Below, in pieces: positions 193 through 56,817 of a stretch of 64,000 nt of DNA (positions within the stretch are counted from its first letter, which is position 1; each line of letters opens with the position of its first letter). The notes below the pieces were generated by a model that searched no databases, had not been told where the DNA came from, and saw nothing but the letters and a program-made list of their open reading frames with translations. A program made the position numbers and the translations under genes. Origin of the DNA: an uncultured Actinomycetes bacterium (GTDB lineage Bacteria > Actinomycetota > UBA4738 > CALAEC01); assembly GCA_964551945.1 (NCBI GenBank), contig CAZKFH010000001.1:81274-145273 (forward strand), in the 5' to 3' direction.

Positions 193-795
193 CTACTTGA
201 AGTCGCCGCGTGCCTGCTCGGCGCGTGACTGGCCGATCGCGGACTTCACGTCCTTCTTCTCCTCCGGCGGAGGGAGCACGGCCTTGAGGCCGAGTGACTC
301 GATCCACAGCTCACGGGCCCAGCCCATCGTGTGGTACAGGTGTTCGTCCTCCTGATCGGAGACCTCGTCGTAGGCCTCCTTGAGGAACTTCTTGATGTCG
401 CCGGTGGTTTCCTCGGTCAGGGTGCCGATCAGCTCCCAGTTCTGGTGGTCCTTCGTCTCCGCGTCGACCACCGCCTCCGCGGCAACGAGCTGGGCCGCCG
501 ACGGGTCTCCCGCTGAGAGCGCCGACTGCATCGACTGGACCAGCGCGGCGGCCTTGTCGCGGACGATCAGGCGGCCGGGAGTCTCGACCTGGGGGTCGAG
601 GCCGATGCTGTCGAACACGTGCGTGACGATCTCGACGTGCTTCCGGGTCTCCTCGAGGTACTTGGTCCACTCCTTCTTCAGGTCCTCGTTGATCGCGCAC
701 TTGATGGCGTTTTCGTAGATCTGGACGCCGCCGAGCTCCGTCTCCAGGGCCTGGTAGAGAAGCTCATTCACCTGTTCCTGTTTTGCCTGTGCCAT
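193..795 (-). CDS. ferritin-like (diiron E…ExxH…E…ExxH) domain protein
   Basis: 200-aa ORF; spaced glutamates and ExxH pairs (EETRKH, EDEHLYH) typical of the ferritin-like four-helix-bundle superfamily. Confidence 0.55.
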   Translation of the reverse strand: MAQAKQEQVNELLYQALETELGGVQIYENAIKCAINEDLKKEWTKYLEETRKHVEIVTHVFDSIGLDPQVETPGRLIVRDKAAALVQSMQSALSAGDPSAAQLVAAEAVVDAETKDHQNWELIGTLTEETTGDIKKFLKEAYDEVSDQEDEHLYHTMGWARELWIESLGLKAVLPPPEEKKDVKSAIGQSRAEQARGDFK

Positions 796-864
796 GCGGG
801 CCTCCTTTGGGTCGGTGTCTCGCTGATATACCTTCCCCGGGTCGGCCGTAAACGCAAAAAGGGA

Positions 865-7492: not shown

Positions 7493-7915
7493 TCAGTCGC
7501 GCACGTGCATGTCGTATCGTTCGAAGAGGTCGGGGCCGGGCGCCTCCCCACGTTCGAGCAGAGAGATGAGCTCGCGCAGGTATGTGCCGAAGTTCATGCC
7601 GGGCGCGTGGATGTTGAGGAAGCGCGCTCGCTCGGGGACGGCGAATGAGTGGAGGGCGCCTGGGGGAGCGACGGCGAACGCGCCGGGGCCCAGCAGGACC
7701 GTCTCGCTCTCCGAGATCGCGACCTCCAGCTCACCTTCGAGAACGTAGAACGCGTCGGTGTGACGCTCGTGCGTGTGGAGCGGGGCCATGGGCGCCGTCT
7801 CCGCCGAATACTCGGTCAGGTGAAGGCCGTGGATGTCCACCTTCACGTCGCGAACGGACGTCCCGCTCGAGAGCGATTCGCCTCCCCCCGGCTGCACCAC
7901 GATCACCTTCTCCAT
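7493..7915 (-). CDS. cupin domain protein
   Basis: Start re-assigned to ATG at 7915 (GGAGGTA RBS). 'HTHERHTDAFYVLEGELEV' matches the cupin motifs. Confidence 0.65.
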   Translation of the reverse strand: MEKVIVVQPGGGESLSSGTSVRDVKVDIHGLHLTEYSAETAPMAPLHTHERHTDAFYVLEGELEVAISESETVLLGPGAFAVAPPGALHSFAVPERARFLNIHAPGMNFGTYLRELISLLERGEAPGPDLFERYDMHVRD

Positions 7916-10848: not shown

Positions 10849-12794
10849 GCGACGATGCCGACCCGGACCGGCTCGGCGATGCCCTTCAAAGAAACTTCGC
10901 GAACGGCCGAGAGCTCGACTCCGTCGCCGGCGTCCTTGGCCGTCTCCTCGCTGGCCAGGATCTCGCCGCCTTCGGCCAGCGCGGCGATGCGTGCGGCCTT
11001 GTGGACCTCGACGCCGCCGTAGTCCTGCCCGCGGCGGGTCCCCTTACCGCTGTGGATGCCAATGCGAACCATCAGCGCGAAGCCGTGGGTCCGTCGGTGC
11101 TCCTCGAGCGCTCGCTGCACCGCCACCGCGCACCGCAGCGACGCCGATGCGTCGGGGAACGCGACGAAGAACCCGTCGCCCGTTGGATGCGCCACCTCGC
11201 CGCCGTGAGATGCGAAGAGCGAGCGCAGGGTCCGGTCGTGCCAGGTGAGGAGGTTCTCCCATGCCCCGTCGCCGATCACGCCGATCAGGTCCGTTGACTT
11301 GACGATGTCCGTGAACAGGAACGTCCGTCCCACGCGCTCGGGTTGCTCGACCGAGGAGGCCATCTCGCCCAGCAGCTCGCTTGCCTGCTCGGCTGCCGCC
11401 ACGGCCCCGAGCTGCGTGAACGCCTCCCGGGCGGCGCGAGCCTCTGACACGGCGGCCTCGTCGTTGCCCAGGGCTCGCTGCGCCTTCGCCAGCAGCATGC
11501 GCGTCTCGGCCACCTCGAATGGGGCGTTGACGTTCTGCCACGTCTTCTGCGCCTGCCGGAGGTCCCGGAGGGCCGCATCCGGCTCGCCACGAGCCAGCAG
11601 CACGGCGCCGCGCGCGTGCGCGGCGATGGCGTGGATGGGCTCGCTCTGGTACTCGCCGATGATCGTGTCGAGCTCGTCTGTGGCGGCGGTCGCCGTCTCG
11701 AGGTCGTCTCCGGCGAGCGCTATCTCGGTTTGGGCGGCGAGAAGTCGTACCCGCAGGCAGTGGTTCCCGCGACTCTCGGCCAATGCCTGATCGATCCCGG
11801 CGGCTGCCGCTTGGACCTTCCCCTGGGCCAGCCGCAACAACGACGTGCCGGGCTCGGCGTCGTGGCCGTACTGGTGCGCGCGTGCGTACGCCTCCTCCGC
11901 CTCGACGAAGTCGCCGAGTCGCCGACGCACCTCGCCGATCTCGTGGTAGGCGGGGCCGAGGCCGACCATGAAATTGAACCGAGGCAGCTCCTCACACGCG
12001 AGGCGGGCCTCGTGCTCCGCCTCACTCAACGAACCCCGAAGCCGCATGAGCTCGGCCTTGTGGATCCGGCACACACCGGGAAACGCGGGCACTCCTTGGC
12101 GTTCGGTCCATCGCAAGGTTGCCTCGGTCCACTCGGCCGCTCGTTGGTAGTCACCGAGCTTCGAGCAGATGCCGATCATTCCGCAGTAGACGTATCCCGC
12201 GGCCTGAGGCTCGAGCTCGCCACCGACGACGGCGACCATCGCCTCGTCGAGGAGTTTCATGCCCTCCTCGACCCTCCCAAGGAGGCAGAGTGCACTTCCC
12301 TTGTCGTGGAGGCACATGCCCGCGAGGTCCCGGTCCCCGGTTGTGCCCGCGAGCTCGATCGCCTCGTCGTATGCAGCGATCGCGGCCTCGAAGTCCGACG
12401 CGAACCAGCTCATGAGTCCTCGCAGCCACAACAGCCACCCGTTCACGGGCCACGAGGGGTCCTCCTCGGCCAGGCGTTGCGCCTTGGCCGCCCATCCTTG
12501 CGACTGCGGGCCCGCTGTCCGCATCGCGTGCTGCTGGCTGATCCGGAACGCCGACATGGCGGCAGCAGGGCGGTTGTCCTCGTCGAGGTAGCCGCGGTAA
12601 GCCCGTTCCAGGAGGTCGAGGGTCTCCTCCGGGTGCTCGCTCCAGTAGGCCGCGGAGGCCAGCAGCTCGAGACCCTCGCCGTTCAGGGCACCGGCCTTGT
12701 CCGCCTGCGAGAGCGCCTCGTACGCTTCGCCCCAGGCGTGGCGGTCCAGCGCATCCCGGCCGATCGCGACCGGGTCGTCCGTGTTGGTAGCCAT
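10839..12794 (-). CDS. TPR-repeat regulator with C-terminal class III adenylate/guanylate cyclase domain
   Basis: C-terminal 'FLFTDIVKSTDL…GDGFFVAFP…VRIGIHSG' are class III cyclase catalytic motifs. The stop overlaps the downstream gene's start by 10 nt. Confidence 0.8.
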   Translation of the reverse strand: MATNTDDPVAIGRDALDRHAWGEAYEALSQADKAGALNGEGLELLASAAYWSEHPEETLDLLERAYRGYLDEDNRPAAAMSAFRISQQHAMRTAGPQSQGWAAKAQRLAEEDPSWPVNGWLLWLRGLMSWFASDFEAAIAAYDEAIELAGTTGDRDLAGMCLHDKGSALCLLGRVEEGMKLLDEAMVAVVGGELEPQAAGYVYCGMIGICSKLGDYQRAAEWTEATLRWTERQGVPAFPGVCRIHKAELMRLRGSLSEAEHEARLACEELPRFNFMVGLGPAYHEIGEVRRRLGDFVEAEEAYARAHQYGHDAEPGTSLLRLAQGKVQAAAAGIDQALAESRGNHCLRVRLLAAQTEIALAGDDLETATAATDELDTIIGEYQSEPIHAIAAHARGAVLLARGEPDAALRDLRQAQKTWQNVNAPFEVAETRMLLAKAQRALGNDEAAVSEARAAREAFTQLGAVAAAEQASELLGEMASSVEQPERVGRTFLFTDIVKSTDLIGVIGDGAWENLLTWHDRTLRSLFASHGGEVAHPTGDGFFVAFPDASASLRCAVAVQRALEEHRRTHGFALMVRIGIHSGKGTRRGQDYGGVEVHKAARIAALAEGGEILASEETAKDAGDGVELSAVREVSLKGIAEPVRVGIVAWR

Positions 12795-12905
12795 CGAGGC
12801 GATGGTACGCGCAGCGCCTGAAGGACGTGGGCTCGTGATCTCGCCAACCCTTTCGGTCCGGCGTCGCTCGTCGATCTCGATCGGCGAAAGGGCTTGCGGC
12901 TCGCG

Positions 12906-14480
12906 TCAGGAGTCGAGCGCCCTCGTCGTCGCCGTCGATCCCATCCGCATGGAGCGGTCGAACACCACGTAGCGAGCCCGGCCGTCCTCCTTCGCCCTAT
13001 AGAGGGCTATGTCCGCGGCGCGGACGAGCTCGTCGGGGCTCTCGTCGGCCCGTTTGCCCACGGCGATCCCGATGCTCGTCGTCACGACGACCTCACCTGC
13101 ATCGAGAACCATGGGTTCGGCGATCGCCTGTAGGAGCCGCCCCCCGATGACGGGGACCTCATCCTCGCTCCGGAGATCCTCGAGCAGGATGACGAACTCG
13201 TCCCCGCCGAATCTCGCGGGGGTATCGACCTCCCGCACCACGCCCCGGATGCGTTCCGTCATGTGCCGGAGCACGCTGTCTCCCGCCTCATGTCCCAGGG
13301 TGTCGTTGATCACCTTGAACCGGTCGAGGTCGAGGAATGCGACCGCGACGGTTCCCGGGCGTCGCGCCGATCGGGCGAGAGCCTGCTTCAGCCGATCCAT
13401 GAACAGCGTCCGGTTGGCGAGACCGGTCAGTTGATCGTGGAGCGCTCGCCGAATCAGCTCCTTCTCTGCTCGATCGCGCGCGCTCAGATTCTCACGGCGT
13501 TCGGCGACGACGGCGGCGAGGAGGAAGCTCGAGAGCGCCGCGCTGGCGTTGAAGACTTGCAGCGTCACCATCTTGTCCGCCAGGCCGGCCCCGGCGAAGG
13601 GACCGGTTGCGTCCAGGGCGGCCCAGATCGCACCGCCGGAGGCGACCAGAACGGCCAACGTGGCTCCCCGTTGGCCGAAGCGCCAGGCGGCCCACGCCAG
13701 GAGCGGGAACACCAGGTACTGGATCGGGAGCTGGCTCCGGAAGACGAGGTAAGTGGTCGCCGCCAGCAGCAGGGCGAGAGAGATGACCTCGATCCGGCGA
13801 GGCCACGGAACCGTCTTGCCTCGCGGCCGCCATCGCGCCAGGGTGAGCAGGAGCGGCGCGAAGACGAGCACGCCCATCGCGTCGCCGGCCCACCAAACCA
13901 GCCAGGTGGCGAGGAACGCCATCTGCGGGATCGCGTCCGAGAGCAATAGCGTCGAGGTTCCGGCCGTGGCGCTCACGGTCATTCCGAGCAGCGCTCCGAG
14001 GAACACGATGGCCATGGCATCGCGAAGCCTCTGGAGATCCGGCCTGAATCCGGTGACGCGCAGCAGCGACACGGCAACCAGCGGGGCGGCGGTGTTTCCG
14101 GCGGCGATGCTTGCAGCGGCGAGCGCCGTGGGCCCGATGGGGAGGTTCACCAGGAACGCGCTGACCGCGATGCCGGGCCACATGCGCCGCCCGAACAGGA
14201 GCATCCCCGCTACGGCGATTCCGGTCGGGGGCCAGATCGGCGTGACCTGATCCCGAACCAGGGCGAGGCGCAGACTCAGGCGAGCAGCGAAGTAGTAGAC
14301 CACCGCGAGAGCGGCCATCTTCGCGATGTCCACCAGAATCCTGCGAGCGGGAGAGTCGCGCGTGGGAAGGGCGGCTGCCGTAGGGGCGGACCGTTCCTCA
14401 GCAGTGCGGTTCGGGCTCACGGCTCCACATTCCTCGAGGGGGCGGTGCGATCGAAGCATCAGCTTCGGGTTGGGATCCAT
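12906..14480 (-). CDS. MASE1 membrane sensor domain fused to GGDEF diguanylate cyclase
   Basis: Start re-assigned to ATG at 14480 ('MDPNPK…'). ~300-aa polytopic N-terminus, then 'RFGGDEFVILL' GGDEF active site with the RxxD I-site region. Confidence 0.75.
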   Translation of the reverse strand: MDPNPKLMLRSHRPLEECGAVSPNRTAEERSAPTAAALPTRDSPARRILVDIAKMAALAVVYYFAARLSLRLALVRDQVTPIWPPTGIAVAGMLLFGRRMWPGIAVSAFLVNLPIGPTALAAASIAAGNTAAPLVAVSLLRVTGFRPDLQRLRDAMAIVFLGALLGMTVSATAGTSTLLLSDAIPQMAFLATWLVWWAGDAMGVLVFAPLLLTLARWRPRGKTVPWPRRIEVISLALLLAATTYLVFRSQLPIQYLVFPLLAWAAWRFGQRGATLAVLVASGGAIWAALDATGPFAGAGLADKMVTLQVFNASAALSSFLLAAVVAERRENLSARDRAEKELIRRALHDQLTGLANRTLFMDRLKQALARSARRPGTVAVAFLDLDRFKVINDTLGHEAGDSVLRHMTERIRGVVREVDTPARFGGDEFVILLEDLRSEDEVPVIGGRLLQAIAEPMVLDAGEVVVTTSIGIAVGKRADESPDELVRAADIALYRAKEDGRARYVVFDRSMRMGSTATTRALDS

Positions 14481-32177: not shown

Positions 32178-32218
32178 CGCCAACGCACAAGTTGGCGGCC
32201 GCGCGTACTCTCTCCGAG

Positions 32219-32587
32219 ATGGACTCTGGAGCCGAGGAGGTGGAGGCGTACCTCGCCGGGGTGCCTGAGGATGCGCGCGCGGAACTCGAGAACATTCGGA
32301 AGACGATCCGTGCCGCCGCCGGGCCGAACGCCGAGGAGGGCTTCAGCTACGGGATCCCCGCTTTCAAGCTGAACGGAAGGCCCCTGGTCGCCTACGCGGC
32401 GCTGAAGAACCACTGCAGCTTCTTCCCGATGAGTCCCGCCGTGATCCAGGCGCACGCGAAGGAGCTCTCGGGCTACGAGACCGCGAAGGGCACCATCCGG
32501 TTCACCGCGGACAATCCGCTTCCGTCCGCGTTGGTTCGGAAACTCGTCAAGGCGCGGATCGCAGAGAGCGAGGCCCCGGAAGCGTGA
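32219..32587 (+). CDS. DUF1801 (YdhG-like) domain protein
   Basis: 'VEAYLAGVPEDARAELENIRKTI' typical DUF1801 N-terminus. Track start 32192 (TTG); ATG at 32219 preferred. Confidence 0.6.
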   Translation: MDSGAEEVEAYLAGVPEDARAELENIRKTIRAAAGPNAEEGFSYGIPAFKLNGRPLVAYAALKNHCSFFPMSPAVIQAHAKELSGYETAKGTIRFTADNPLPSALVRKLVKARIAESEAPEA

Positions 32588-32871
32588 GTCGTCGCCAACG
32601 AGGTGAGTTCACACAGCGCGTGCGTGACCGCATCCTTTCATTGCGGCCGGGGGAGGTCGCCACATACGGGGAGATCGCTGAGGAGGCAGGGTCCCCCCGA
32701 GCGGCTCAGGCTGTCGGCAACGTGCTCTCGCGAGGGGATGGACTCCCGTGGTGGAGGGTCGTAACCGTCACGGGACGCTTCGCGCCTGGGCACGAGGCTG
32801 AGCAGGCGGCGCAGCTTCGGCGCGAGGGTCACACGGTTGGCCCAAACGGCTTCCAGAGGTTCAGGGCGTGA
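32584..32871 (+). CDS. atl: alkyltransferase-like protein (MGMT-family DNA-binding domain lacking the catalytic Cys: 'PWWRV' instead of 'PCHRV')
   Basis: 95 aa. 'GEVATYGEIA…GNVLSRGDGLPWWRVV' is the MGMT C-terminal domain with Trp at the Cys-acceptor position, as in ATL proteins. GTGA overlap with the upstream gene. Confidence 0.7.
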   Translation: MSRRQRGEFTQRVRDRILSLRPGEVATYGEIAEEAGSPRAAQAVGNVLSRGDGLPWWRVVTVTGRFAPGHEAEQAAQLRREGHTVGPNGFQRFRA

Positions 32872-33542
32872 CCGCCGACCTCGACGCCCGCGTTCGCCTC
32901 CACATCTACCGAACGTTCGTGGACCGCGGGACGCCGCCGACGACCGAGGAGACCGCCTCTGCGCTCTCGCTGTCCGAGCCCGGAGCCGCCGATGCGTACC
33001 GGCGGCTGGCGGAGGCGCACGCGATCGTGCTCGAGCCCGGCTCCACCGACGTCTGGATGGCGAACCCGCTCTCAGCCCGGCCCACGCCCTTCGAAGTTCG
33101 GACCGCGGTTGGCCGCAGTTGGTATGGCGTGTGTGCGTGGGATGCGCCGGGCGTGCTGGCGATGGTCGGCAGCGATGGTGTGGTCAGGTCGAGCTGCCCC
33201 GACTGCGACGAGCCGCTCGAGCTGATCGTCGAGAACGGAGAGATGCGCGGCCCGGAGGGGGCGGTCGCCCACTTCCTCGTCCCCGCCAAGCGCTTCTGGG
33301 ACGACATCGGTTTCACCTGAAGCACGATGCTTCTCTTCCGGTCGGAAGAGCACGTCGACACATGGTGCGGGGAGCGAGGCGATCAGAAGGGCGCGGTTCT
33401 CACGCTCGACCAGCTCTGGGGGCTGGGGAAGGCTTGGCACGGTCCGCGACTCGAACTCGACTGGCGCCGTCCGGCACCCGACGAGGCAGAGACGCTCTTC
33501 GCTTCCCTCGGACTCACCGGGGACTTCTGGCGACTGACCTGA
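32868..33542 (+). CDS. MerB-like organomercurial lyase homolog with in-frame TGA (33318-33320) at the catalytic Cys159 position; predicted selenoprotein
   Basis: 'YGVCAWDAPGVLAMVG' aligns with MerB 'YAWCALDTLIFPALIG' (Cys96/Asp99). 'GFT-[TGA]-STMLLFRSEEHVDTW' aligns with 'SFCCHVHFFASVPTAEDW'. Cys-to-TGA spacing is 62 against 63 in MerB. The two parts are in the same frame. GTGA overlap with atl. Confidence 0.6.
33333..33350 (+). promoter_or_regulatory. putative SECIS hairpin (CUCUUCC-GGUC-GGAAGAG) 12 nt downstream of the in-frame UGA
   Basis: Perfect 7-bp stem (8 bp with a 2-nt loop alternative), GU in the loop, at the canonical bacterial SECIS distance. Confidence 0.5.
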
Positions 33543-33555
33543 TGAAGGCGGGAAC

Positions 33556-33951
33556 ATGACACCGACCGAGAAGCAGCCGGGACCGAAGGAGGTCGACGCC
33601 TACCTGGCGAACGTCCCCGAGGAACCGCGGGCGGCACTCGAGAAGCTTCGGAAGGCGATACGGGCAGCCGCGCCGACGGCGACCGAGACGATCAGCTACG
33701 GCATGCCCACATTCAAGATGAACGGTCGGTTCCTGGTGTCGTACGCGGCCTGGAAGAAACATTGCAGCCTCTACCCGGTCTCGGCCTCTTCCTTGGAGGC
33801 GGTCGGGGAGGACCCTGCGGAGTTCGACGTCTCCAAGGGGACCGTGCGATTCCCGCACGCAAAACCTCCGCCGGCTTCGCTCGTTCGCAAGCTGGTGAAG
33901 GATCGGATCGCGAATGAGTTGAGGAGATCTACAAGGGCTGATCGAGCCTGA
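33556..33951 (+). CDS. DUF1801 (YdhG-like) domain protein, second paralog
   Basis: 'VDAYLANVPEEPRAALEKLRKAI'; paralog of 32219-32587. Confidence 0.6.
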   Translation: MTPTEKQPGPKEVDAYLANVPEEPRAALEKLRKAIRAAAPTATETISYGMPTFKMNGRFLVSYAAWKKHCSLYPVSASSLEAVGEDPAEFDVSKGTVRFPHAKPPPASLVRKLVKDRIANELRRSTRADRA

Positions 33952-49670: not shown

Positions 49671-50141
49671 TCAGGCGACCGTGAACTCCCCGCGCATACC
49701 GAGGAACGCGTGCGGCGTGCCGTCCGGAGCCTCCACGAAGCACACATACCCGAACCTGCCGGGAACCAGAGCCGCGGCGAACTCCGCTGACTCGCCGGGT
49801 TGGGCCTCGACGCGATTCACAGCTTGCGTGAGCTTGCCGATCTCTTTCTCCGGGAGCTCGATGATCTCCTCGATGCTCTGCGGACCTGTGATGTACGCGA
49901 GATACAGCTCGTGCGGCTCCTCGCCGGTGTTCTCGAGGACAAAGGTGTACTCGCCTTCGGCGACCGTAGCGGGCGCCAACTGGAACTCGTACTCGACTGC
50001 AGTGATCGGGATCTCGTCACCGATACCGCCGCCGAGAGTCTGCTCCTCGACCGGCTGCCCGGGCCGGGCATCGATCGTCGGGTCGTCCTGCGCGCACGCT
50101 CCGAGGACCAGGGTGAGCGTGACCAGGAACAGCCGCCTCAC
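49671..50141 (-). CDS. cupredoxin-like lipoprotein (possible type-1 copper site Cys…His…Met)
   Basis: Lipobox 'LVLGAC'; 'HELYL…GYVCFVEAPDGTPHAFLGM'. Start overlaps the upstream EF-G-like stop. Confidence 0.45.
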   Translation of the reverse strand: MRRLFLVTLTLVLGACAQDDPTIDARPGQPVEEQTLGGGIGDEIPITAVEYEFQLAPATVAEGEYTFVLENTGEEPHELYLAYITGPQSIEEIIELPEKEIGKLTQAVNRVEAQPGESAEFAAALVPGRFGYVCFVEAPDGTPHAFLGMRGEFTVA

Positions 50142-52222
50142 TTATGCGCCTCTTCCTTCTCCTTCTGGGACTCGGCGATCACCTTGTCGGCGAGGTGCGA
50201 GGGCACTTCCTCGTAGTGCGAGAACGTCATGGTGAACACGCCGCGCCCTCCGGTGATCGAGCGTAGGTCGATCGAGTAGCGCGTCAGCTCCGACTGGGGG
50301 ACCTGCGCGAAGACCCGCGTCTTGCCCGTGCCGGTCGGGTTCATCCCCGACACGCGCCCGCGTTTCGTGTTGAGGTCGCCGATCACATCACCGGTCATCG
50401 AGTCGGGGACGAGAACGTCGAGGTCCATAACGGGCTCGAGGAGCACGACGCCCGACTTCTGCACGGCCTCCTTGATCCCGATCGAGCCGGCGATCTGGAA
50501 CGCCATGTCGGACGAGTCCACGGTGTGAAACTTTCCGTCGTGAAGGGTCACGCGCAGGTCGACCATCTGGTGGCCGGTCGTCCCTTCCTCCATCGCCTTG
50601 CGGATGCCCTTCTCCACCGACGGGATGAACTGGCTCGGGATCGCGCCGCCGTGGATCTTGTTGATGTACTCGAAGCCGCCGCCTCGCTCGAGCGGCTCGA
50701 CCTTCATGTGCGCAACGGCGTACTGGCCGTGGCCCCCGCTCTGCTTCACGTGGCGCCCGATCGCCTCCACCGCCGAGCGGATCGTCTCCTTGTACGGGAC
50801 GCGCGCGGGGTGGCTGATGACCTCCACGCCGAACTTGCGCAGCATCCGCTCCGCCATCACGTCGAGGTGCGCCTCGCCCATGCCGTACATCACGGTCTCG
50901 TGGGTGTCTGCTTTTCGCTCGACGCGGAACGTCGGATCCTCTTCCTGCAGCCGGTGGTACGCGGTGGAGAGCTTGTCCTCGTCGCCCTTCGTCTTCGGCT
51001 CCACCGCGACCGCGTGGAGCGGCTCCGGCAGCTCGAGCGCGGCGACCGTCACCGGTGCCGATTTCTCCGAGAACGTGTCGCCCGTGTGCGTGCCCGACAG
51101 CTTGGCAACCGCACCGATGTCGCCGGCCGGCACCTCCGCCACGTTCTCGTGTTCCTTGCCGCGCATCGTGAAGAGCTGATGAACACGCTCGTCGGAGTTC
51201 TGCGTGGCGTTGTGCACCGTCGTGTCGGGACGGAGCTTGCCGGAATAGACGCGGAACAGGTTGATGCGACCGACGTAGGGATCGGAGACGGTCTTGAAGA
51301 CGAACGCGGCCAGGGGCCCGTTCGGATCGTTGGGAAGCTCCTGCTCCTCGCCCTCCTTCGTCATCGCCTTGGCGGGCGGCCGGTCGAGCGGCGAGGGGAA
51401 CTCGTCCACGATCAGGTCCGCGAGCCGGTCGACCCCAATCCCCTTGGAGGCGGCGCCGACGAGAACCGGCGCGATCCTGGCCTCAGCGAGTCCACCGCGG
51501 ATCCCCTTGACGATGTCCTCCTCGGGCAGCTCTCCTTCTTCCAGGTAGCGCTCGAGGAGCGCGTCGTCGGACTCCGCGACGGACTCGGCCAGCTTCTCTC
51601 GAAGCGGGTCGGCCTGGTTGTGTAGCTCCTCGGGCCAGTCGCTCTCCTGGCCCTTCGGGCCCGATGGGTAGCGGTACGCCTTGTTGGTGAGGAAGTCGAC
51701 CACGCCTTCGAAGCCGTGCTCCTCGCCGATGGGGAACTGGAGCGGTGCGACCTGGGTGCCGAACGACTGCACGAGCTGGTCGAGCGTCCGCTGGAACGAG
51801 GCGCGCTCCCGATCCATCTTGTTGATGAAGAACGCGCGCGGGAGGTTGTGCTCGACCGCGAGCTCCCAGACGACCTCGTGCTGCACTTCCACGCCGTCCA
51901 CGGCAGAGACCACGAACAGGCAGGCATCCACGGCGCGGAGCGCGGCGCGCACATCGCCGATGAAGTCCGCATACCCGGGGGCGTCGAGGATGTTCAGCTT
52001 GTTGTTGCGCCACTCGATGGGGGTCAAGGCGAGGGAGACGCTGATCTGTCGCTTGACCTCTTCGGGCTCGAAATCGCTGACGGTATTGCCGTCCTCGACG
52101 GTTCCCATCCGGGTGGTCACACCCCCCAGGAACTGAAGGGCTTCGGCGAGCGTCGTCTTGCCGCTCCCTCCGTGGCCGACGAGCAGGACGTTGCGGATGT
52201 TGCCGGCTTCGTAGGTGTTCAA
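50138..52222 (-). CDS. elongation factor G paralog (EF-G2-like translational GTPase)
   Basis: 'VGHGGSGKTTL', 'DAPG', 'NKMD' G-motifs and full five-domain EF-G architecture; 694 aa. Confidence 0.85.
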   Translation of the reverse strand: MNTYEAGNIRNVLLVGHGGSGKTTLAEALQFLGGVTTRMGTVEDGNTVSDFEPEEVKRQISVSLALTPIEWRNNKLNILDAPGYADFIGDVRAALRAVDACLFVVSAVDGVEVQHEVVWELAVEHNLPRAFFINKMDRERASFQRTLDQLVQSFGTQVAPLQFPIGEEHGFEGVVDFLTNKAYRYPSGPKGQESDWPEELHNQADPLREKLAESVAESDDALLERYLEEGELPEEDIVKGIRGGLAEARIAPVLVGAASKGIGVDRLADLIVDEFPSPLDRPPAKAMTKEGEEQELPNDPNGPLAAFVFKTVSDPYVGRINLFRVYSGKLRPDTTVHNATQNSDERVHQLFTMRGKEHENVAEVPAGDIGAVAKLSGTHTGDTFSEKSAPVTVAALELPEPLHAVAVEPKTKGDEDKLSTAYHRLQEEDPTFRVERKADTHETVMYGMGEAHLDVMAERMLRKFGVEVISHPARVPYKETIRSAVEAIGRHVKQSGGHGQYAVAHMKVEPLERGGGFEYINKIHGGAIPSQFIPSVEKGIRKAMEEGTTGHQMVDLRVTLHDGKFHTVDSSDMAFQIAGSIGIKEAVQKSGVVLLEPVMDLDVLVPDSMTGDVIGDLNTKRGRVSGMNPTGTGKTRVFAQVPQSELTRYSIDLRSITGGRGVFTMTFSHYEEVPSHLADKVIAESQKEKEEAHK

Positions 52223-56122: not shown

Positions 56123-56817
56123 GCGAGCGTGTCCTCGGAATGGAACTCCTCATGCGAGACGTCGCGGAGCCGGCCGTCCTCCATGAACAGGATCCGGTCG
56201 GTGACGTCATGGAAGTCGTCGGGATCGTGCGACACGACCACCACAGCCGCGCCTTCGTCCGCGCGGCGCCGCAGGTCCTGGACCATCCTCGGCCTGAAGG
56301 AGCGGTCGATCGCGTTGGTGGGCTCATCCAGGATCAGGACGGGCTTGTCGCCGGCCAGCGCCCGGGCGATCAGCGCACGCTGCTGCTGTCCACCCGAGAG
56401 CTCGAAGACGCATTCATCTGCAAGGTCGGTCAGCCCCACCGAATCGAGTGCGGCGGCGACAAGCTGGTCATCTTCTTTGCGACTTCCGCGGAACAGTGAG
56501 CGGGCGGGCGTCAGCCCGGCCTCGACGAGCTCCGCCACCGACACGGGCAGCACCATCCGAGCCGCGCCCTGCTGGGGTGCATAGCCGATGCGCCGGCGGG
56601 CCTCGGGGAGGGCGGCGGGCCGGCTCAGCACGAGTACGGTGCCGTGCTCCGGCTCGATAAGGCCGACCACGACCTTGATCAGGGTCGACTTGCCCGAGCC
56701 GTTGGGGCCGGTCAGGACGACGAACTGTCCGGTCGCGATGAAGAGATCGAGTCCGTCGAGAACGGGGACCGGGCCGTAGCCGGCACGGAGCCCGCGAACC
56801 TCGATGGCGGCGGTCAC
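56119..56817 (-). CDS. znuC: metal ABC transporter ATP-binding protein
   Basis: Walker A 'GPNGSGKST', signature 'LSGGQQQR', Walker B 'ILDEPT'. Confidence 0.85.
   Translation of the reverse strand: MTAAIEVRGLRAGYGPVPVLDGLDLFIATGQFVVLTGPNGSGKSTLIKVVVGLIEPEHGTVLVLSRPAALPEARRRIGYAPQQGAARMVLPVSVAELVEAGLTPARSLFRGSRKEDDQLVAAALDSVGLTDLADECVFELSGGQQQRALIARALAGDKPVLILDEPTNAIDRSFRPRMVQDLRRRADEGAAVVVVSHDPDDFHDVTDRILFMEDGRLRDVSHEEFHSEDTLA

Follow-up and report, generated by a model that had tools for sequence, protein, structure and literature searches.

A MerB-like gene of an uncultured actinomycete with a conserved in-frame UGA, very probably read as selenocysteine, at the position of MerB Cys159

The locus described here lies in a 64-kb stretch of DNA (the window) from an uncultured Actinomycetes bacterium (contig CAZKFH010000001.1), and all coordinates given without a locus name are positions in that window. 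It holds a gene of the organomercurial lyase (MerB) family whose reading frame is interrupted by a TGA codon. Two open reading frames (ORFs), 32868-33320 and 33327-33542, share one frame, and the TGA at 33318-33320 is the sole interruption between them. The initial annotation had described this arrangement, and on re-reading the sequence we found 150 codons upstream and 73 codons downstream of the TGA to be open. The GTG start codon overlaps the stop codon of the upstream gene (GTGA), and the gene ends with a TGA at 33540-33542. Residue numbers refer to the 224-residue protein obtained by joining the two parts, in which the proposed selenocysteine (Sec) is residue 151. The features of the locus are collected in Table 1.

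The joined protein matches the Pfam MerB model (PF03243) over residues 68-191, across the TGA, with a score of 107.6 bits against a cutoff of 27, and either half alone matches just its corresponding half of the model. When the joined protein was searched against PDB sequences using phmmer, the best match was MerB2 (5C17). These alignments bear out the motif positions claimed at the outset: GVCAWD aligns with AWCALD of MerB, which contains Cys96 and Asp99, and opposite the TGA stands the first Cys of the MerB sequence SFCCHVHFF, which is Cys159. The claimed spacing of 62 residues (C89 to U151) was likewise reproduced. In public gene calls the gene is split in two. Its N-terminal half is a separate protein of 150 residues, a relative of which (146 residues) is named 'organomercurial lyase', and the remainder is a 71-residue ORF starting from the ATG at 33327, with one clustered member named 'hypothetical protein'. 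The structure was modelled on P0151, a contiguous relative with Cys at the site, which served as a proxy and is 47% identical to the 150-residue part and 51% identical to the 73-residue tail of the window protein. The AlphaFold2 model of P0151 had a predicted local distance difference test (pLDDT) value of 94.5 and a predicted template modelling (pTM) score of 0.90, and its top 11 Foldseek matches in the PDB were all MerB or MerB2, with template modelling (TM) scores of 0.60-0.73 normalised by target length.

In order to place the interrupted gene among its relatives, a search of about 5.8 billion proteins was combined with a genome scan of one genome per species, covering 185,579 species. About 119 database homologs, with 57-87% identity, are called as proteins of about 146-151 residues, which means that all of them terminate at the same place. 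The genome scan returned 369 related loci, of which the best 80 were analysed and 79 were readable at the site; the closest locus among these species-representative genomes is 69% identical to the window gene. The codon following ...IG(F/Y)T was observed to be TGA in all 79 readable loci and TAA or TAG in none, and the residue preceding it is Thr in every one. A conserved in-frame tail, (S/A)TML(L/A)FRSEEHVxRW...GLTG(D/E)FW(R)L, follows the TGA in 76 of the 79 loci and is complete in 75, with a modal length of 73 codons. Three loci depart from this pattern: one (L072) ends at a contig edge after 61 conserved residues, and two (L006 and L076) have frameshifted tails, which are either assembly errors or pseudogenes. 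The TGA lies at 3980 in L006, where a 2-nucleotide deletion directly follows it and the hairpin described below is retained, and at 10442 in L076. Identity at codon positions 1, 2 and 3 was 0.61, 0.65 and 0.47 in the tail as compared to 0.66, 0.67 and 0.48 in the N-terminal part, a likeness which indicates that the tail is under protein-coding selection in that frame. The hosts of the 80 loci are mainly Gaiellaceae, Thermoleophilia and other Actinomycetota, with some Chloroflexota, Acidobacteriota, Gemmatimonadota and others. The names of their metagenome-assembled genomes (MAGs), which come mostly from soil projects, include Gaiellaceae, Thermoleophilia, Solirubrobacterales and Chloroflexia. 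Cultured Gaiella and Solirubrobacter are aerobes.

Table 1. Features of the locus, as positions in the 64-kb window
Feature	Position	Strand	Basis or remark
Complete predicted selenoprotein gene, MerB family (PF03243), 224 residues	32868..33542	+	One frame; homologs with the same N-terminus
N-terminal coding part, 150 codons, GTG start	32868..33317	+	Winged-helix-like N-terminal region and first half of the MerB core
In-frame UGA, probably read as Sec151, at the MerB Cys159 position	33318..33320	+	Alignment to MerB; TGA in 79/79 loci
C-terminal coding part, 73 codons	33321..33539	+	Second half of the MerB core and conserved ...GLTGDFWRL tail
Cys89-Ala-Trp-Asp92 codons, counterparts of MerB Cys96 (metal ligand) and Asp99 (proton donor)	33132..33143	+	
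Cys110-Pro-Asp-Cys113 codons, CxxC pair	33195..33206	+	
Hairpin of selenocysteine insertion sequence (SECIS) type, 7-bp stem CUCUUCC/GGAAGAG, apical loop GGUC at 33340-33343	33333..33350	+	
DUF1801 paralogs flanking the ATL-like/MerB-like gene pair (ATL, alkyltransferase-like)	32192-32587 and 33556-33951	+	
95-residue protein, MGMT DNA-binding domain (PF01035) only	32584-32871	+	Stop overlaps the GTG of the MerB-like gene
ArgG-ArgH fusion (argininosuccinate synthase and lyase domains), 887 residues	29514-32177	+	Same fusion in L001, 79% identity

Relatives that are not interrupted show which residue the family carries at this position. An exhaustive HMMER search with P0120, a contiguous 222-residue relative with Cys at the UGA site, yielded 1,247 relatives, and 64 contiguous representatives of 200-245 residues were aligned. 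The residue in the UGA column is Cys in 57 of them, Trp in two, and Ala, His and Tyr in one each, with a gap in the remaining two. Where the DNA of Cys-form relatives was read, in two cases (L084 and L087), the codon was TGC in both. We considered whether Trp in this column might represent a TGA read under an alternative code, but the DNA of one of the two relatives concerned (P0178, L086) has a genuine TGG. This sequence, from a JGI metagenome contig (L086:255-950), has TGG for TGA and yet retains the whole hairpin, CUCUUCC-GGUC-GGAGGAG; apparently a Sec-form gene has either changed from Sec to Trp very recently or been given a wrong base call here. In a rough neighbour-joining tree, drawn without support values, the Sec forms group into a single large clade that also includes the Cys form P0151 as a nested branch, and a few Sec forms (L075, L077 and L080) fall among the Cys forms.

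The initial annotation had also pointed to a perfect 7-base-pair hairpin 12 nucleotides past the UGA, and it is present as described, with CTCTTCC at 33333-33339, GGTC at 33340-33343 and GGAAGAG at 33344-33350, so that the GGUC loop starts 19 nucleotides past the UGA. Across the window and 78 loci its core, YUCC-GGUC-GGAR, is nearly invariant, which holds for the GGUC loop and the inner five base pairs alike. Codon choice within the hairpin is restricted: CGG, which makes up 34% of the Arg codons in other parts of these genes, encodes the loop Arg in 76 of 79 cases, TCG (41% of Ser codons elsewhere) encodes the loop Ser in 75 of 76, and third-position identity is 0.75 in the hairpin codons as compared to 0.47 in the remaining tail. 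The two arms of the stem also vary together. In counts taken as they stand for sequences of shared ancestry, the stem codon pairs are TTC:GAA in 33, TTC:GAG in 21, CTC:GAG in 24 and CTC:GAA in none (Fisher p = 5e-8), and stem pair 19-30 among distinct sequences is U-A in 31, U-G in 22, C-G in 19 and unpaired in none. In L075 two synonymous changes, CGG to AGG and TCG to TCT, turn the closing C-G into A-U and keep the pairing, and in L080 the closing pair C-G is swapped to G-C. Overall, 84% of the stem cells are paired, as against 48-60% when the partners are slid by 1-3 columns. The two Cys forms with TGC (L084 and L087), which encode the same FRS(D/E)E peptide, use CGC for Arg, and the GGUC loop and the hairpin are absent at that position in both. 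The alignments thus strongly support the view that the hairpin is a feature of the RNA which would serve decoding of the UGA, beyond the constraint on the peptide.

We conclude that the UGA at 33318-33320 is very probably decoded as selenocysteine, and that 32868-33542 would constitute one selenoprotein gene. The initial proposal of a candidate Sec-containing MerB homolog is supported by the TGA in 79 of 79 loci, the conserved tail, the Cys in 57 of 64 contiguous relatives and the covarying hairpin. Its companion argument, that the UGA is not a nonsense mutation, is upheld by the conservation of the TGA and of the frame in relatives, but the part of it that relied on the single hairpin is weak (z = -1.77). 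The GGUC loop, about 19 nucleotides downstream, would be the binding site for SelB with its Sec-tRNA(Sec) when the ribosome arrives at the UGA. The product is predicted to adopt a MerB-like fold, with a Cys89/Asp92/Sec151 site replacing Cys96/Asp99/Cys159 of MerB. In such a site an organometallic substrate would have its metal held by the thiolate together with the selenolate, and proton transfer from the aspartate to the carbon would break the carbon-metal bond. By analogy with the established mechanism of MerB, a carbon-metal lyase action of this kind is the most likely function, and we hold it with less confidence than the decoding itself. SelB-dependent decoding in this genome, incorporation of selenium, the lyase chemistry and the nature of the substrate are all what we infer from these comparisons.

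Several observations weigh against this interpretation. The window hairpin on its own is only modestly better than shuffled sequences (z = -1.77, with 10 of 200 shuffles folding equally well), and therefore an argument from the single sequence is weak and the case depends on the comparison with relatives. That comparison has limits of its own: the covariation counts carry no correction for shared ancestry, the control for the hairpin among Cys forms consists of two sequences only, and the stem lies within a conserved peptide, LFRSEE, so that part of its conservation is at the protein level. The Rfam SECIS families gave no match on 33250-33450 even at E <= 10, a weak negative since bacterial SECIS elements are specific to gene families. 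An ATG lies 6 nucleotides past the TGA in 68 of 79 loci, leaving separate translation of the tail formally possible there. The genes selA, selB, selC and selD were not found in the 64-kb window or in about 1 Mb of related loci. As to function, mer genes were not found nearby, and the Hg-Se bond is very strong, which may hinder release of the product.

The searches for the selenocysteine machinery covered both its proteins and its RNA. With E. coli SelA, SelB and SelD as tblastn queries, no true sel gene was detected in the window or the related loci. The only SelB-like match of the window, at 50138-52222 (- strand), is a 694-residue EF-G-like translation GTPase and not SelB, and selD-like matches in six loci fall on a PurM-like AIR-synthase ORF upstream of the gene and are not selD. 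ARAGORN identified no tRNA in the window and no tRNA-Sec in the window or in 84 related loci, Rfam gave no RNA family match across the whole window, and a probe with FdhF revealed no formate dehydrogenase in the window or the related-locus sequence. Two unusual tRNA predictions were made in related loci, either of which may be an artefact of prediction: a 'tRNA-???' with a four-base anticodon (ggct) at L048:7074-7149 (- strand), and a tRNA-Ser with the unusual anticodon act at L036:10276-10348.

A scan for further TGA-interrupted genes gave 374 matches, nearly all of them spurious high-GC ORFs, and a stricter codon-position filter left two credible ones. The first, in a Solirubrobacterales MAG (L076), is a rhodanese-domain gene at 12626-12949 (+ strand) with a TGA at 12824 in its active-site loop, in the context VISYCT-U-PHDEV, and the Pfam Rhodanese match crosses the TGA. 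The second, in a Chloroflexia MAG (L068), is a DsrE/DsrF-like gene at about 460-843 (+ strand) with a TGA at 721 in the context GEVAT-U-HTCAKARGLG, where Pfam DsrE matches residues 6-119 across the TGA. In both loci the second TGA gene accompanies a TGA-form MerB-like gene within 20 kb. Since they fit the published selenoprotein families 'rhodanese COG0607 form 2 (CxU)' and 'DsrE-like (UxxC)' (PMC9312934), respectively, these two genes lend indirect support to the use of Sec in related genomes. Two candidates in the window itself were rejected: the TGA at 7495 (- strand) ends one gene and the next begins after it, with a product starting MTKVIVG, and the candidate at 56497 (+ strand) has no protein-like tail.

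The alternative that survives best, and which we nevertheless regard as improbable, is read-through of a leaky UGA independently of SelB, in which a near-cognate tRNA (Trp, Cys or Arg) would be accepted while the hairpin slows the ribosome or release factor 2. The failure to find Sec machinery in the 64-kb window and the related loci would be in line with this, as would the metagenomic relative with TGG at the site (L086), and UGA is a much-used stop codon in high-GC actinobacteria. However, a generic roadblock needs no fixed loop, while here the GGUC loop with closing C-G pairs is near-universal and stands at the spacing seen in fdhF. A Trp inserted in place of a metal ligand would leave the site inactive, and what contiguous homologs carry there is Cys (57 of 64), not Trp. 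Moreover, two related genomes hold further TGA genes of known selenoprotein families.

Still somewhat less probable, in our view, is a genuinely split gene, where the TGA is a true stop and a protein of 150 residues is made alongside one of about 71 residues re-initiated at the ATG at 33327, the two perhaps associating into a MerB-like fold. Gene callers do annotate two ORFs, and the ATG stands 6 nucleotides past the TGA in the window as well as in most of the loci, as said above. In 11 of the 79 loci, however, the codon at that position is ATC or ATT (Ile), so that there is no start codon; and since contiguous Cys forms have Met, Ile or Leu at the same position, the Met appears to be a residue of the family and not a start signal. 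A plain stop would also be expected to vary, but the internal one is invariably TGA although 51% of the terminal stops of the same genes are TAG or TAA. The break would fall exactly at the catalytic residue, which the split protein would lack, and a SelB-type hairpin conserved at synonymous sites, and missing in the Cys forms, would have no role.

That a MerB-like gene has here suffered a nonsense mutation or an assembly error, which would make it a pseudogene or a sequencing artefact, is what a lone in-frame stop in a MAG-type contig most often turns out to be, and the frameshifted tails of L006 and L076 could be cited in its favour. We consider it nearly excluded by the recurrence of the same TGA in about 119 database clusters and in 79 of 79 assemblies that are independent and span several phyla, and by a downstream frame whose coding constraint matches that of the upstream part; as the loci are 45-87% identical, they are not copies of one contaminating sequence. 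Equally implausible is a genome-wide reassignment of UGA to a sense codon, because this very gene terminates with UGA in the window as well as in 37 of 75 relatives (the others ending in TAG in 31 and TAA in seven), other genes of the window end normally in TGA, and high-GC Actinomycetota are not among the lineages known for code 4 or code 25.

Returning to the predicted selenoprotein, its active site is strongly conserved. An alignment of 39 N-terminal halves shows no variation at C89, W91 and D92 or at C110, D112 and C113, and C89 and D92 are invariant in the Sec clade. The pair C110/C113 is Cys at both positions in 73 of 76 Sec forms as compared to 19 of 64 contiguous Cys-form representatives; as a speculation, this CxxC could be a second metal-handling site or serve in handing off the product. 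Among 140 aligned sequences, 39 (of the P0120 type) were observed to have Cys in place of Asp at the MerB Asp99 position.

The surroundings of the gene do not connect it to mercury resistance. Using tblastn with MerT, MerP-like, MerA-like and GDCCVxC probes from a Jiella mer operon (merR was not probed), we obtained no match in the window or in the 80 loci, and linkage to a mer operon was ruled out on this ground. As the gene is never found beside mer genes, it probably serves some purpose other than classical plasmid-type mercury resistance. The mer operon that supplied the probes, on a plasmid of Jiella pelagia, contains a 'GDCCVxC domain-containing (seleno)protein' between its MerP-like and MerA-like genes (L089:8507-8731); GDCCVxC is another mercury-related family which NCBI flags as sometimes containing Sec.

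Neighbouring genes of the clade vary by lineage and, as assigned by eye, are housekeeping-like (PurH-, PurM-, CBS-, EamA- and DapA-like). No conserved neighbourhood was seen beyond lineage synteny, judging from clustering of neighbours and inspection, with hidden Markov models specific to the SAO genes (discussed below) not run. In the window, the small protein encoded immediately upstream has PWWRVV in place of the active-site Cys of MGMT, which makes it a protein of the ATL type; no homolog of it was found in the 80 other loci. One DUF1801 gene is also adjacent in L001. A functional operon comprising the DUF1801, ATL-like and DUF1801 neighbours was considered and rejected, this arrangement being found again only in the closest relative, L001, and only partly.

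What these observations may mean can be put forward tentatively, and we would not be surprised if it proved otherwise. The clade may represent a conversion of Cys to Sec that took place independently of the known MerB-like selenoprotein SaoL, and which spread across hundreds of mostly aerobic soil lineages. It might encode a stand-alone housekeeping enzyme whose substrate is something other than an organomercurial under the control of a mer operon, perhaps a different compound with a carbon-metal or carbon-metalloid bond, and C110/C113 might then remove the product from the Cys-Sec site. If this is true, the enzyme would be among the most widespread selenoenzymes of soil Actinomycetota other than formate dehydrogenase, with all copies now annotated as truncated. 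In hundreds of public gene calls the gene appears as two entries, a truncated N-terminal protein of about 150 residues and an orphan 71-residue ORF, and recognising the Sec codon would give corrected gene calls and a new selenoprotein family in the catalogue. It would also indicate the use of Sec in abundant, poorly cultured soil Actinomycetota, where few selenoproteins besides formate dehydrogenase are known. With natural Sec/Cys pairs at hand, of which the window protein and P0151 are one, the contribution of selenium to carbon-metal cleavage becomes directly testable.

As in the SECIS element of E. coli fdhF, the hairpin lies directly downstream of the UGA and inside the coding sequence. 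The apical loop, which for fdhF was read directly from the E. coli genome, is GGUC in both, 18 nucleotides past the Sec140 UGA in fdhF and 19 nucleotides past the UGA here. The stem sequences are unrelated, and the fdhF stem carries a bulged U whereas that of the window is a perfect 7-base-pair helix without a bulge. The contiguous Cys forms, 'alkylmercury lyase family' proteins such as P0151, P0120 and hypothetical proteins of Ralstonia megaplasmids, belong to the same subfamily, with 36-50% full-length identity, and have the C-terminal ...GLTG.FW.L tail in common with the Sec clade. They differ from it in having TGC (Cys) at the site and in lacking the GGUC hairpin, as seen in two sequences, and many of them (P0120 type) also have Cys where MerB has Asp99.

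MerB and MerB2 (EC 4.99.1.2; PDB 3F0P and 5C17) share with the clade the fold, the Pfam family and the Cys-x-x-Asp motif, and both MerB and the clade have a third chalcogen ligand at the Cys159 position, at a spacing of 63 residues in MerB and 62 here. In contrast to MerB, the clade has Sec for Cys159, no neighbouring Cys160 and an additional conserved CxxC (C110/C113), and its gene is chromosomal, amid varied housekeeping-like neighbours. Identity to annotated merB and merB2 proteins is 24-27% over most of their length. The scores of the window protein on the models of authentic MerB, 30.9 bits against a cutoff of 200 (NF033555) and 38 bits against 193 (NF009710), lie far below those cutoffs, which none of the 52 family members tested approached.

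The closest parallel is the MerB-like selenoprotein SaoL, whose Sec likewise falls on Cys159 of MerB (Haft & Gwadz 2022, bioRxiv 10.1101/2022.07.06.499078), and which two reviews, of 2022 and 2026 (PMC9312934, PMC13188914), list as the only MerB-like selenoprotein family. The initial annotation had stated that no Sec-containing MerB homolog had been described; as SaoL was published in 2022, this claim of novelty was overstated. As a general phenomenon, MerB-like selenoproteins that carry Sec at this position are thus already in print, and the clade is not the first of its kind. SaoL resembles the clade in being a PF03243 protein with an in-frame UGA and with Cys and Asp aligned to MerB Cys96/Asp99, in being truncated in databases, and in having rare Cys-form orthologs. 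On the SaoL model NF040728, however, the window protein scores 46.1 bits against a cutoff of 140, and the best E-value among 52 family members was 1.9e-19, well below the standard of the cutoff; no NCBIfam model covers the subfamily (52 members tested). The residue before Sec is Thr in the clade (IGFT-U-S) as against Cys in SaoL (CU). SaoL lies in a conserved nine-gene SAO locus (ABC transporter, SaoE and others), whereas the clade gene stands alone, and the only reported hosts of SaoL are anaerobic Firmicutes, Deltaproteobacteria and spirochaetes, those of the clade mainly Actinomycetota. The clade is therefore distinct from SaoL, being set apart by NF040728 score, motif, neighbours and taxa. 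A literature search of incomplete coverage found no description of this MerB-like Sec clade, and it appears to be a second Sec-bearing subfamily within the MerB superfamily, distinct from the first and seemingly undescribed. Together with SaoL, it suggests that Sec in place of the Cys159-type metal ligand is a recurrent solution in MerB-like enzymes.

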